This document shows positions 10,193-54,304 of a stretch of DNA of 63,889 nt, one piece after another (position 1 is the first letter of the stretch; each line of letters begins with the position of its first letter). The position numbers and the translations under genes were made by a program. The notes under the pieces were generated by a model. That model saw only the letters and a list, made by a program, of their open reading frames with translations. It did not search any database and was not told the origin of the DNA. The stretch covers positions 21,888,001 to 21,951,889 of the forward strand of contig CM075989.1 in assembly GCA_038087875.1 (NCBI GenBank), given 5' to 3'. The DNA is from Malacoraja senta (Eukaryota).

Positions 10193-10646
10193 AGGCACAA
10201 AATAGCAGGAGTAACTCAGAGGATCAGGCAGCATCTCCGGAGAAAAGGAATAGATGATGTTTCGACTCGAGACCCTTCTTCAGAGCTGAAACGTCGCCTA
10301 TTCCTTCTCTCCAGAGATGCTGCCTGTCCTGCTGAGTTACTCCAGCGTCTTGTGTCTATCTTTGGTTTGAACCAGTATCTGCAGTTCCTTCCTACACATT
10401 AAGATAATTGTCATTGTCAAATGAGAACATGAGATAGACACAAAAAGCTGGAGTAACTCAACGGGTCAGGCAGCATCCCTGGAGAAAAGGAATAGGTGAC
10501 GTTTCCGTTTCGGGTCAAGACCCTTCTTCAGAGCTGAAACGTCACCAATTCCTTTTCTCCAGAGATGCTGCCTGTCCCGCTGAGTCACTCCAGCTTTTTG
10601 TGTCTATCTTCGGTTTAAACCAGCATCTGCAGTTCCTTCCTACACA
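10193..10646. mobile_element. Tandem pair of Penelope pLTR palindromic elements
   Basis: Two near-identical palindromic units flanked by TTGTTAAATGAGAT at 10179-10192 and 10647-10660. Confidence 0.8.
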
Positions 10647-20335: not shown

Positions 20336-21145
20336 AAGACTTGGCCTCAAACTCCATCACCCTCTCTGCCCCGTGCACCTTTGACTAATCCAAGGGTAAT
20401 CAGATGAAATAGAGTCTCAGGTGTTACACTGATGTACTTGGCTTTGTATCCGCTTGACTAATAACGTGTTTAAAATGCATGAACATTGATCTGAGGCGTT
20501 TGGCGGCATTGCAGCAATACACTTTAAGCTAGAAACAGACTGTGAACCTGGTCTCACAAAGGACTCTTTATAGACAAACAGGAGGGCTTAATAGTGTCGA
20601 GGGTTAACAGACGTCAGGGTGAAAATTACAGCAGTGCCTGTTCTGGAGAAAATAACAGTGGTTATGATACTTTGGTTGGAATCTGTCATTTCCACTGTGA
20701 TGGTAACAAAATACTCAACAGAGTCTATGACAGATTAATCTGCTTGAGGCGAACTGAGATGCATTGGCAGCAGAAAGGGGAAGTATTTCAACATCGCTGG
20801 TTTATGGAACTGGGAGAATCTTCAAATGTCAAGTGGATAAAGAAGTAAAGATGTTTCAGTTGGGTCATAATGTTCTCACCATATGCTGTTATTAACTTAA
20901 AAGTGATGAAAGCAGAGGATAATACTCCTTCTTTAAATCACCAGGTGGGGCGAGAGGGATGGGGTTGTGTGGAGGTGGGGTCAAGAGCTGAGGAAAGGCT
21001 TTTAACAGTACACTTGGTATTTACTTCCCTGAACTGTTCAGGAGAAGGGTAACCCTTTGAGATTATAACCTATTAACTGTGTAGGAAAGAACTACAGATT
21101 CAACTGCTGGTTCAAATCGAAGGTAGACACAAAATGCTGGAGTAA

Positions 21146-21840
21146 GGGGTGGGGGAGAAAGGGGTGGGGAAGTGGGGGGAAGGGGGGTAGGGGGGTGGGA
21201 GGGGGTGGGGGGAGGGGGAGAGGGGAGGGGGAGGGCGGGTAGTGGGGGAGGGGAGCGGGGGAAAGAGGGGGGGAAAGAGGTAGGAAAGAGGGGGGGGAGA
21301 AGAAGGGGGGGAAAGAGGGGGTGAAAGAGGGGGGGGAAAGAGGGGGGAAAGAGGGGGGGGAAGAGGGGGGGAAAGAGGGGGTGGAAAGAGGGGGGGGGAA
21401 AGAGGGGGGTGGAAGAGGGGGGGGAAAGAGGGGGGGAAAGAGGGGGGGGGAAGAGGGGGGGGAAAGAGGGGGTGGAAAGAGGGGGGGGAAAGAGGGGGGG
21501 GAAGAGGGGGGGGAAAGAGGGGGTGAAAGAGGGGGGGGGAAGAGGGGGGGAAGGGGGGGAAAGAGGGGGGGGAAGAGGGGGGGGGAAGAGGGGGTGGAAA
21601 GAGGGGGGGGAAAGAGGGGTGGAAAGAGGGGGGGGAAAGAGGGGGTGGAAGAGAGGGGGGGGAAAGAGGGGGTGGAAAGAGGGGGGGGAAGAGGGGGGGG
21701 GAAAGAGGGGGTGGAAAGAGGGGGGGGAAAGAGGGGGTGGAAAGAGGGGGGAAAGAGGGGGGGAAAGAGGGGGGGGAAGAGGGGGGGGGAAAGAGAGGGG
21801 GGAAAGAGGGGGGGGGAAAGAGGGGGGGGAAGAGGGGAGA
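21146..21840. repeat. G-rich polypurine minisatellite, (G-run + AAAGA)n
   Basis: About 700 bp of G-runs separated mostly by AAAGA, nearly pyrimidine-free on the plus strand. Confidence 0.95.
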
Positions 21841-49228: not shown

Positions 49229-50285
49229 CTAGACTAAGTGGGACCTGTTGGGTCCCAGCATCACACGGGAGGGCTGGTTTCACAACGCAATATTCCACCT
49301 CTCCACCAATTCCAATATTGGTGGCCATTTCAAGCAGGGTGCAAGGCCACTGAAGACAGCGAGTCGTGACCTCTCCCTCCTCCATCTTGCAGAGACTGAG
49401 CCACGCCCACACTTCTGGGTTTTATAGTCCCTCCCCCCCTCCCACCAACAGGGGCGTGGCCTTCATGGCACGATTGACAGGAGAGAGAATCTCAACGTTT
49501 TTAAAAACACTAATAACTCTTTTATTTTTCATCGATGGGAAAAGTCCTCGGCACCTGATGGGCGGAGGGGGACTCTGAGTAAGATGGCCAAAAATCACAG
49601 CCATACGTGGCAGCGTTTTTTCTAAAATCAATACAAAGCGCAAACAGGAAGTGGTCAAGATTAGACTTTTAATTATATAGAAGGCAAGGCAACTTTAATT
49701 AGGCAAGGCAACTTTAATTAGGCAAGGCAACTATAATTAGGCAAGGTAAATTTAATTAGGCAAGGCAACTTTAATTAGGCAAGGCAACGATAATTGGGCA
49801 AGGCAACTTTAATTAGGCAAGGCAACTTTAATTAGGCAACACAGCTTTCGCATTTCCAAACCAAAGGCAACACAGCTTTAGCATTTCCAAACTATATTTT
49901 CAAACCACATTAAGGGCACTGACAGGTCAGTAAAACCACTCACAGTTTAGTAGACATGTGTTCGGTGTTATTCACAGCTCAGACTGAGAGACGTGACCCT
50001 CTCGGTCCACCATCTTGCAGAGACTGACTGAGGCACTCAACACTTCCGGGTTTTATGGTCCCTCCAGAAAGGGCGTGGCCTTCAGGAGAGAGAATCTCAA
50101 CATTTGTTAAACACTAATAACTCTTTTATTTTTCATCGATGGGAAAAATCCTCTTGCCCTGCGCAGCGGAGGGTGACTCTGAGTAAGATGGCCGAAAATC
50201 ACAGCCGTAAGTGGCAGCGTTTTTTCTCAAATCAATATACAGAATAACAGGAAGTGGTCAAGATCAGACTTTTAGTAATATAAGA
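49229..50285 (-). mobile_element. Non-autonomous Helitron with two 5' termini
   Basis: Minus strand A|TC...CTAG|T; hairpin TGGGACC-5nt-GGTCCCA at 49239-49257; no TSD. Confidence 0.85.
49682..49840. repeat. 19-bp minisatellite AGGCAAGGCAACTTTAATT, 8 copies, inside the Helitron
   Basis: Directly visible tandem units. Confidence 0.95.
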
Positions 50286-51815: not shown

Positions 51816-53285
51816 ACACTGAGAGGCTCCGTCAATTAATAACTCTAAAAACACCAGGAATAGGTAAGCTGAATGCACTGTATTTTATCCAGGGTAGGGG
51901 ACTCAAGAACTGGAGGATGTGGATTTAAGGTGAGTGGGCAAAATTTAATAGGAACCTGAGGGGAAACATTTTCAGTCAGAGGGTTGCAGGCAAATGGAAC
52001 CATCTGCTAGAGGAGGTAGACGAGCAGGTGCTATGACAGCATTTAAAAGATCCTTGGACAGGTGCATGGACAGAAATGGTTTAGAGGGATATGGCCAAAA
52101 CGCAGGCAAATGGGACTGGCTTAGATGTGTTATCTTGGTCGGCATGGACAGATTGGGTTGAAGGGCCTGTTTCTGCAGAAACCAGGAACTGTTGATGCCG
52201 GTTAATACACAACGTTATGGTTAGGTGGAGCATTTTGGTCGGCATGAATGCGTTGGGATAAATGGCTTGTTTCCACCCTGTATGACTCTATGATTTAATG
52301 TGTGCATTGTTTAAGACAGAAACATGAGAGGCGTTGATGCATGGTAATAGTATGTGTGGAGAATGATTGCATGAAGGAACTCATCAGCGCTTGTGCAGGA
52401 GCTGAATTGGAGCCAAAAGATCACGTCTTCTGGCAGTGACACTATTCTTTGCAAGGACTGGCAACTATTCCATTGCATACCATACCATCGGGACCCAGGC
52501 TCGATCCTGACTATGGATGCCTTCTGTACGGAGTTGGTATGTTCTCCCTGTGACCTGATTAGTACGGGTGTCAGGGGTTACGGAGAGAAGGCAGGAGAAT
52601 AGGGCTAGGATGTACAGATGAATGATTGAATGGCGGAGTGAATGGCGGAGTAGACTTGATAGGCTGAATAGCCTAATTCTGCTCCTAGCACTTATGAACA
52701 TGAACCTGTGTGGATTTTCTCTGGGTGCACCACTTTCCTCTTACACTACAAAGACAGACAAGATTGTAGGTGAATTGGTTTGGTAAAACTGTACAAAATC
52801 ATCCTCAGTGTGTCGGATAGTGTTAGTTTGCGGGGATCACTGGTCGGCACGGACTCGGTGGGCCGAAGGGCCTGTTTCTGCGCTGTATCTCTATACTAAA
52901 CTAAAAATGCTGCCTGACCTGCTGAGTTCCTCTAACACCTTGGGTTTTTTTTTTGCAGGAAAGCCAAGAATGTTGACAATTTGCTGTAATCTACATAGAG
53001 CGTTCCACAAAGTACATTGCCTGCAGCTTCAAGCATCAGTTTGTGTTGGTAGAAACCTGCACTGTGCAAATAATGACATCATTAAATGCACACCTAATTC
53101 CAGGAAAAGGTTGGGCTCTCAAACCTGGAACACAATTTGAAATACCAGGTCCAATTTCATGATTTCACCCATGAAAGATTGTTGGCATGATAAACACTTC
53201 ATGTAATCAATTTGGAGTTGGGTAGTTTTTCTTACTAAGTTCTTTGCAAGCCAATAAGCTTTATTCCTCTTCAATGCTTATAGTT

Positions 53286-53420
53286 CGTTCACTAGTGTGT
53301 CAGACGATGTTGCTTTTGGCTTCTGTTGTCGTCCAACATGTTGACAGAATTGTCGGCCGACGCGTCACAGAGTGCATCGCGTCCAGGGATCGCCACGAGG
53401 AGGCTTCTGTCATGTTCCCC
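53286..53420 (-). mobile_element. 135-bp ribozyme-headed SINE-like insertion with 12-bp TSD
   Basis: ATGCTTATAGTT at 53274-53285 and 53421-53432; begins at ribozyme G1; tail CATCGTCTGACACACTAGTGAACG resembles RTE/BovB 3' ends. Confidence 0.85.
53342..53420 (-). ncRNA. HDV-like self-cleaving ribozyme fold
   Basis: GGGGAAC-A-TGACAGAA-GCC-TCCTCGT-GGC-GATCCCT-GG-[P4 ACGCG/CGCGT]-CGGCCGACAA-TTCTGTCA; P1, P1.1, P2, P3 and P4 all pair. Confidence 0.85.
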
Positions 53421-53479
53421 ATGCTTATAGTTAGAATGGAGAATAGGGTTAGAAGGTCCCGGAATAAAACATGTTCCGG

Positions 53480-53820
53480 TTGCAGGAAACATGTTCCCGA
53501 TGTTGGGGGAGTCCAGAACCAGGGGCCACTCAGTTTAAGAATAAAGGGTAAGCCATTTAGAACGGAGACGAGGAAACACTTTTTCACACAGAGAGTGGTG
53601 AGTTTGTGGAATTCTCTGCCTCAGAGGGCGGTGGAGGCCGGTTCTCTGGATACTTTCAAGAGAGAGCTAGATAGGGCTCTTAAAGATAGCAGAGTCAGTG
53701 GATATGGGGAGAAGGCAGGAACGGGGTACTGATTGGGGATGATCAGCCATGATCACATTGAATGGCGGTGCTGGCTCGAAGGGCCAAATGGCCTACTCCT
53801 GCACCTATTGTCTATTGTCT
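53480..53820 (+). mobile_element. CR1 LINE 3' fragment
   Basis: SLRIKGKPFRTETRKHFFTQRVVSLWNSLPQ; (CTATTGT)n tail. Confidence 0.9.
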
Positions 53821-54304
53821 AAAACAAATCTCTTTAAAGTGCATAAGAAAAAATGTATTGAAACATCAGAACTGGAATATGCTGCCTGACCCGCTGTGTT
53901 ATTCTAGCACTTTGTATTTTACGCAAGATTCCAGCACCTGCAGTTCCTTGTGTCTCTATTTAAGAAATCTGAACTTTCCTTACTCTATCCAAACTAATTT
54001 CAAGTAACCTTATAAAGATATTCAAAATCAGAACAAAGTTTTTCACTGTTTCTCAGTAAACCTGACAATAATAAAAACAATATCAATACCAACAACTATT
54101 TTGATGTAGACATATGGATCTCCAGATGCTGGTTTACAAAACAAGACACAAAGTGTTGGAGGAATTCAACGGCTCAGGCAGAATCTCTGGAAGACATGGA
54201 TAGGGGATGTTTCGGATCGGGACCCTTCTTCAGACTAATCCTAGTAGGTGGGAGAAACCTTAGAAAAGAGGTGGGTCAGGACAAAGCCTCAAGTGATAGA
54301 TTGA

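Follow-up and report, generated by a model that had tools for sequence, protein, structure and literature searches.

A 135-bp insert in Malacoraja senta DNA is probably an internally deleted derivative of an RTE-like LINE with a predicted HDV/CPEB3-type 5′ ribozyme

What is a 135-bp insert that begins like a hepatitis delta virus (HDV)-like ribozyme and lies between two copies of a short direct repeat, and how could it have come to be there? The question is raised by positions 53286-53420 (minus strand) of a 63,889-nucleotide stretch of Malacoraja senta DNA (GenBank assembly GCA_038087875.1, contig CM075989.1, positions 21,888,001 to 21,951,889), which we call the window, and in which an earlier note had recognized a mobile element made of an HDV/CPEB3-like ribozyme and an RTE-like tail. 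That interpretation is supported by our analyses. What lies there is probably an old copy, since mutated, of a non-autonomous retroelement that was internally deleted from a ~3.1-kb RTE-like long interspersed nuclear element (LINE), the 5′ end of which carries a predicted ribozyme of the HDV/CPEB3 type. As read from its sequence, the short element keeps the first ~113-124 nt of the LINE (the ribozyme fold, the start codon and about ten codons) and its last ~22 nt (the stop codon, a 13-nt 3′ untranslated region (UTR) and a (GAAC)n tail).

The insert and its flanking repeat, as the earlier note described them, are real. The sequence ATGCTTATAGTT occurs exactly twice in the window, in perfect copies at 53274-53285 and 53421-53432 on either side of the insert, and the chance expectation for it at up to one mismatch is 0.35 in the window. 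The copy beside the 5′ end of the element (53421-53432; AACTATAAGCAT on the element strand) abuts G1 of the ribozyme with an offset of 0. The two copies had been read as a perfect 12-bp target-site duplication and they are indeed identical, but the true duplication is 9-12 bp: on the element strand the copy beside the 3′ end (53274-53285) opens with AAC, and these three bases, which also occur in each unit of (GAAC)n, may just as well be tail.

Does the insert hold the whole of the ribozyme fold? An HDV-like descriptor matched only once in the window, with both strands searched, at 53342-53420 on the minus strand, and gave no match in a reversed-sequence control. The match starts at G1 (53420), closes with the last base of the P2 3′ strand (53342) and satisfies the order of a nested double pseudoknot (P1-P2-P3-P3′-P1′-P1.1′-P4-P2′), in which all the letters and pair counts previously given for P1, P2, P3, P1.1 and P4 were reproduced. 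In P1 the 5′ strand GGGGAAC (53414-53420) and the 3′ strand GATCCCT (53385-53391, the last T of which pairs with G1) form six of seven pairs (G1-U among them, the seventh position being an A-A mismatch); P2 is complete, with 8/8 pairs between TGACAGAA (53405-53412) and TTCTGTCA (53342-53349). P3 (GCC/GGC, 3/3 pairs; 53392-53404 with its loop) surrounds the loop L3, TCCTCGT, two Cs of which pair with the GG of P1.1 (53383-53384; P1 3′ strand and P1.1 together span 53383-53391), and the P4 hairpin, ACGCG ... CGCGT (53360-53382), is shortened in this copy by a gap. The junction J4/2 (CGGCCGACAA, 53350-53359) holds the putative catalytic C followed by AA, ending in ACAA (CGACAA before TTCTGTCA). 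When 52800-53900 was scanned permissively against Rfam, with E values up to 10 admitted, the top match was CPEB3_ribozyme, at 53343-53431 on the minus strand (21.1 bits, E 0.0083), and the same scan gave no match to tRNA, 7SL or 5S RNA. The head of the element is thus not that of a classical RNA polymerase III short interspersed nuclear element (SINE) but the LINE's own 5′ end.

The insert belongs to a multi-copy family. In its own genome, of 1.94 Gb, the 135-nt query gave 850 first-look candidates, and the 40 that were scored were all near full length and, except for the window copy itself, 84-89% identical to the query; a pattern for the core, from the P1 3′ strand to the P2 3′ strand, matched 223 times in the genome vs 0 in a control. 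Typical copies are ~147 nt long, compared with which the window copy, a decayed member of what we call the T/CAA subfamily, lacks 8-9 alignment columns from the 5′ side of P4 and 4 nt from the linker that follows the fold. Pairing is well kept: 95.4% of 803 cells were paired across the aligned family copies vs 30-42% with slid partners. The A-A mismatch is private to the window copy: of 27 aligned copies it alone has A at P1 position 6, where the other 26 have T.

The 5′ ends and the duplications of the family are what the earlier note's reading predicts, namely ends aligned to G1 and duplications that differ from copy to copy. Among 30 loci (25 distinct insertions, the remainder being segmental duplicates), 25 start GGGGA at G1, two depart from this by a substitution in the G-run, and the other three have lost 3-4 nt from the 5′ end. 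Seventeen distinct insertions have a clear duplication (at least 9 nt with at most one mismatch), which abuts G1 in six, runs ambiguously into the G-run in eight and is offset by 1-7 bases in three. The duplications are 9-15 bp long, and many of them begin AAC or AC, like the repeat unit of the (GAAC)n tail, which is consistent with priming by microhomology.

From where, then, were the two ends of the short element derived? A tail search with “not-this-base” codes at the place of the P2 3′ strand gave 12 matches vs 0 in a control, and five of these (four distinct) have only the last ~22 nt in common with the short element. Upstream of that common stretch lies the C-terminus of an open reading frame (ORF), the stop TGA of which falls inside the stretch and is followed by a 3′ UTR of ~13 nt and then by GAAC repeats or A-rich sequence. 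These loci are copies of a LINE that spans ~3.1 kb from G1 to tail and has the Pfam domains Exo_endo_phos (E 1.7e-9) and RVT_1 (E 7.5e-27). By BLAST, nucleotides 1-109 of the short element align with the first ~120 nt of the LINE (75-79% identity to two old copies) and nucleotides 110-135 with its last ~25 nt, and the deletion junction falls at a shared ACA. Seven distinct LINE 5′ ends were found, three of which start exactly GGGGATCA after unrelated flanks, one of which has G2>A and three of which are truncated (by 3, ~9 and ~95 nt); first-look candidates numbered 62 for the reverse transcriptase (RT) region of the LINE and only 16 for its 5′ region. The LINE's AUG lies 4 nt past the P2 3′ strand and opens into the endonuclease domain, through which, in the copy L059, its frame runs for ~300 codons with one stop; reading frames are broken in all four LINE copies read. 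An RTE-like LINE with both termini of the short element, the putative autonomous partner, is present in the same genome. The claimed RTE tail of ~55 nt was correct only in part: the last ~22 nt (53286-53307; last codons, stop TGA, ~13-nt 3′ UTR and start of the (GAAC)n tail) do come from the LINE 3′ end, but the preceding ~34 nt (53308-53341) are a linker from the start of its 5′ coding region, with the start codon ATG at 53337-53339 and the first codons up to the ACA junction.

Two smaller observations concern these elements. Within the short element the 10-mer GACAGAAGCC is present at two places, in the P2/P3 5′ strand (53402-53411, minus strand) and in the linker (53316-53325, minus strand), where it could compete for the P2 3′ strand TTCTGTC; LINE copies have GACAAAAGCC at the linker position. 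In addition, a LINE copy at L045:6057-6690 (the same as L038) has the N-terminal part of its RT joined straight to the last ~100 nt, so that internal deletions evidently recur in this LINE family.

The LINE has the features by which RTE elements are described (PMC2887409): a single ORF for an apurinic/apyrimidinic (AP) endonuclease and RT, a size of ~3.2 kb, a 3′ UTR that is extremely short and finishes in simple repeats, and target-site duplications of small size. It agrees with that description in size, ORF layout, 3′ UTR and duplications. The closest proteins to it are 57-64% identical, ~980-1000 amino acids long and lie, with the same two domains, on contigs of 3.1-3.3 kb.

If the fold matters to these elements, it should be found at the same place in relatives of the LINE. 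A search with the LINE's RT aligned with 11 homologues gave 599 matching stretches in metagenome contigs, 516 of them relatives, from which we retained 80 loci. The descriptor was run over both strands of 282,549 nt from related loci and matched six times (reversed control, 0). Every one of these matches lies on the ORF strand and precedes the RT match by 1369-1642 nt, the distance in our own LINE being 1598 nt. The six matches represent four distinct elements (L090, L093 and L094 are one locus), to which the fold of L101, with A in place of G1, was added by eye, for a total of five. The helices were compared by a helix-parsing script, a MAFFT alignment having been rejected as out of structural register. 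Set side by side, our own LINE, its short derivative and these five relatives show compensatory changes in three helices: P1 (positions 5-7), P2 (all seven positions) and P3 (position 3); all five relatives and the LINE read C-Y-A-A before P2. Upstream of G1, L079, L106 and L101 continue into unrelated flanks, so that the 5′ boundary coincides with the predicted cleavage site there too. Scores on Rfam were 55.6 bits for L090 on CPEB3_ribozyme (cut-off 35, E 1e-12), 41.6 bits for L106 on HDV-F-prausnitzii (cut-off 44) and about 30 bits for L079 and L101. Taken together, the homologous placement, the compensatory changes and the Rfam scores of the relatives lead us to read the fold as a conserved 5′ feature of the LINE lineage, of predicted HDV/CPEB3 type.

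Neither the descriptor nor inspection by eye found an HDV-like 5′ fold in the closest metagenome relatives (L077, L082 and L083), and L091 was ambiguous. At L104:17-90, another related RTE-like contig has a stem that resembles P1 (GGGGAAT/ATTCCCC, with GG after it) together with a perfect hairpin of 12 bp; there is no canonical L3, and this may be a variant 5′ structure.

Several of our results weigh against the explanation we prefer. The fold was found in only seven of the 33 related loci with enough upstream sequence (the five distinct elements), although the relatives without it may be 5′-truncated or have a different 5′ end, and the LINE is called RTE-like on its architecture. The CPEB3 model matches every own-genome copy tested, the window copy and eight of eight further copies (22.8-28.5 bits), but all of them (21.1-28.5 bits) fall under the Rfam cut-off of 35, which is reached only by the relative L090. 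Covariation is likewise absent within the own-genome family, in which one pair is changed on both sides, no better than in shuffles; we attribute this to copies that are too alike and to mutations that were neutral after insertion, and the compensatory changes in P1, P2 and P3 emerge only across the related RTE-like elements. A second ribozyme family in the same genome, with the same P3/L3 core and another P2, was sought and rejected, as its two matches are one duplicated locus that reads as non-ribozyme, and for that reason there is no within-genome set for covariation. Thermodynamic folding adds little: the RNAfold z-scores of own copies are unremarkable (-1.2 to +0.6), which is uninformative because a pseudoknot falls outside RNAfold's model.

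A further point of this kind comes from RNA. About 6% of one raw polyA RNA run was read and mapped on a consensus-like copy, giving 48 mapped reads, all of which continue into unlike flanks; eight of them cross G1 into upstream sequence, as do four more in a diverged copy, and no pile-up of read starts was reported at G1. The run shows read-through transcripts that contain the element and no sign of cleavage, although this evidence is weak, with a depth of ~9, the strand unknown and most reads only 90-95% alike. A search of sequencing runs with 10 sampled words gave six rows, from organisms D-G, with at least half of the words, and none of these was listed as RNA; the rows marked “RNA?” had fewer than five words. 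In another run, one contig has the ribozyme joined with the 5′ coding region of the LINE, which places the LINE in a second organism.

The remaining two points against us lie in the core itself. In HDV-like ribozymes the catalytic C of J4/2 is expected as CNRA a few bases before the P2 3′ strand, and G1 usually closes P1 as G-U. The earlier note had cautioned that J4/2 reads ACAA in the window copy; it does, and the caveat is largely resolved, since CCAA is what the LINE and most copies have, the window subfamily having lost 1 nt. Among the 100 matches listed of the 223, CCAA is found in 68 and CAA, the type of the window copy, in 32. Read by eye together with the G1 partner, the same 100 comprise 54 with CCCC and CCAA, 14 with CCCT and CCAA, 31 with CCCT and CAA and one with CCCC and CAA; exact core 29-mers number 93 with the P1 3′ strand ending CCCC (G1-C) and 91 with CCCT (G1-U). 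(A 48-mer pattern gave 14 matches and was discarded as too CpG-rich to set beside the 29-mer counts.) J4/2 is CCAA in four of six LINE copies, and CTAA occurs in relatives. From the LINE and the 68 listed copies we infer that C-C-A-A before P2 was ancestral, which fits the CNRA form, and that the window subfamily lost one C. That subfamily is one base short of the CCAA or CTAA of the LINE and relatives, which makes its activity uncertain, and G1 is paired with U in the window subfamily, with C in the LINE and likewise with C in relatives L079 and L106, so that the LINE form departs from the usual U.

The best-surviving alternative starts from this difference. Could the ribozyme work in the LINE and in the CCAA copies only, with the CAA subfamily impaired and spreading regardless, or by some other route to its 5′ end? 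That C-Y-A-A is present in all five relatives and the LINE, that CAA is the minority form among the matches listed, and that two of the 100 listed rows have the T/AAGC markers of the window subfamily and yet CCAA, which suggests that the deletion came last, would all be in keeping with such a loss. Set against this, all 30 loci examined for their 5′ ends are CAA-type and 25 of them start GGGGA, which implies that 5′ ends were still made at G1 after the deletion, and the subfamily is not small, accounting for at least 31 of the 100 listed copies and contributing to the 91 exact T-variant core 29-mers. We consider an impaired subfamily unlikely on these grounds. For the window copy as an individual, an inert fossil is the most likely reading, because its P1 has a mismatch, its P4 is shortened and its J4/2 is 1 nt shorter.

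Is a ribozyme needed at all to explain the sharp ends at G1? An internal promoter in the first ~90 nt, comparable to Pr77 of L1Tc, could also set them, the fold then serving translation start or protein binding, or nothing. In its favour, RNA reads cross G1 with no pile-up of starts there, the first 77 nt of L1Tc are described as both promoter and ribozyme (PMC3383444), the R2 protein is said to bind a pseudoknot at the R2 5′ end (PMC6765202), and the AUG of our LINE is only 4 nt past the fold. A sequence-specific promoter does not, however, predict compensatory changes in P1, P2 and P3 among helices of differing sequence. The predicted cleavage site is also the point at which the elements begin after unrelated flanks, not here alone but in L079, L106 and L101 too, and one relative scores above the Rfam cut-off for a ribozyme family known from experiment. 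We therefore regard a promoter as the cause of the G1 ends as improbable. That the likeness to HDV is accidental and the repeat a mere short LINE fragment is scarcely credible, for although own copies are sub-threshold on Rfam, have ordinary RNAfold z-scores and lack covariation among themselves, the descriptor found one match in the window and six in relatives, all at the homologous place, with none in controls, compensatory changes are present and a homologously placed relative reaches 55.6 bits.

How would an internally deleted LINE derivative with a 5′ ribozyme move? The RNA of the LINE or of the short element would be made within a longer transcript, from which the ribozyme is predicted to cut just 5′ of G1, leaving an RNA that starts exactly there; the fold and the matching DNA 5′ ends are observed, the cutting predicted. 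The endonuclease/RT of the LINE would then recognize the short 3′ end and copy the RNA into a staggered nick, with AAC or AC microhomology between target and tail presumably helping to prime, and would leave duplications of 9-13 bp, such as we observed. Because the short element keeps both ends of the LINE, it probably rides on the LINE protein.

How new is such an element? HDV-like ribozymes in RTEs are already in print (PMC6765202), as is the use of HDV-like ribozymes by some non-autonomous elements (PMC6765202; PMC3774820), and the R2 short internally deleted elements (SIDEs) of Drosophila consist of a 5′ ribozyme and a 3′ end (Eickbush and Eickbush, 2012; PMC3414825). The principle is not new, and our element is of the SIDE type, derived from an RTE-like LINE, dispersed and of moderate abundance: it joins the 5′ ribozyme end and the 3′ end of one LINE, has no ORF, starts at the same G1 and is flanked by duplications. 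R2 SIDEs are, similarly, non-autonomous, keep the 5′ HDV-like ribozyme and 3′ end of a parent whose ORF they have lost, and are thought to spread with the parent's protein by target-primed reverse transcription (PMC3414825). The parents differ, ours being a dispersed LINE of the endonuclease type and RTE-like whereas R2 is specific to ribosomal DNA, and so does abundance, since R2 SIDEs are described as rare (PMC3414825) and we find hundreds of scattered copies with 9-13-bp duplications.

Other known systems are more distant. The 5′ HDV-like ribozymes of LINEs also lie at the very 5′ end, with the cleavage site as the element boundary and the ORF next (PMC6765202; PMC3774820), although our interest is in the short derivative of ribozyme plus tail. 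L1Tc and NARTc of Trypanosoma cruzi are likewise a LINE and a non-autonomous derivative with a common 5′ HDV-like ribozyme (PMC3383444; PMC4035085), but they belong to another LINE clade and host kingdom, and the same 77 nt of L1Tc are also a promoter (PMC3383444). Hammerhead SINE-like elements and retrozymes share with our element a small size, a lack of autonomy and a self-cleaving ribozyme (predicted in our case), and differ in ribozyme class, in their often tandem or circular RNA intermediates and in their partners (PMC6765202; PMC7229834). A literature search on HDV-like ribozymes in sharks found nothing on this topic.

The mammalian CPEB3 ribozyme (Rfam RF00622) requires separate consideration, as its model was the best Rfam model for all the copies we tested and its alignment takes in G1, the P3/L3 core and the P2 3′ strand of own copies, with L090 above the cut-off. 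The own copies differ from it in the sequences of P1, P3, L3 and P4, as their scores (21-28.5 bits) reflect, and they are repeated and mobile whereas the CPEB3 ribozyme has a single conserved intronic site. The relative at L090:2382-2465 (one locus in three assemblies, with L093 and L094) has an RT 56% identical to that of our LINE, and its ribozyme shares with the CPEB3 consensus of Rfam 35 of the 37 bases that run from G1 to P1.1, and 10 of the final 11. As this match covers the P1 and P2 helices, the sequences of which are unconstrained by function, it points to shared ancestry over convergence. Was the mammalian CPEB3 ribozyme, then, once the 5′ end of an RTE lineage that was domesticated, tiny elements of ribozyme plus 22-nt tail having seeded introns? 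We offer this tentatively, as a possibility that is on balance doubtful; no statement of an RTE origin for CPEB3 was found in the literature passages available, and it may already be in print.

Whatever the answer, the family and its metagenome relatives tie a dispersed retrotransposon ribozyme to the CPEB3 type and thus bear on the origin of the CPEB3 ribozyme. The family also makes the minimal cis-acting parts of an RTE-like LINE readable, ~113-124 nt from the 5′ end and ~22 nt from the 3′ end having been enough for hundreds of insertions, and with its G1-C/G1-U and CCAA/CAA variants it is a natural test of how far the J4/2 of an HDV-like ribozyme can shrink.

Some other features of the loci and the window may be recorded. 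A G/C-rich imperfect palindrome at L003:2590-2740 has many sub-threshold matches to microRNA precursors (the best 40.2 bits vs 96), which are probably a low-complexity artefact. The window contains tandem arrays of ~13-nt units (39 overlapping copies reported) and of 19-nt AGGCAAGGCAACTTTAATT-like units (nine copies), for which the coordinates 21140-21780 and 49644-49871 were listed jointly, in that order. It is dense in other interspersed repeats (for example at 10541-10617 and 52704-52905), with several families of 10-25 copies each, and has many long inverted pairs; the element lies between two of these other repeats.

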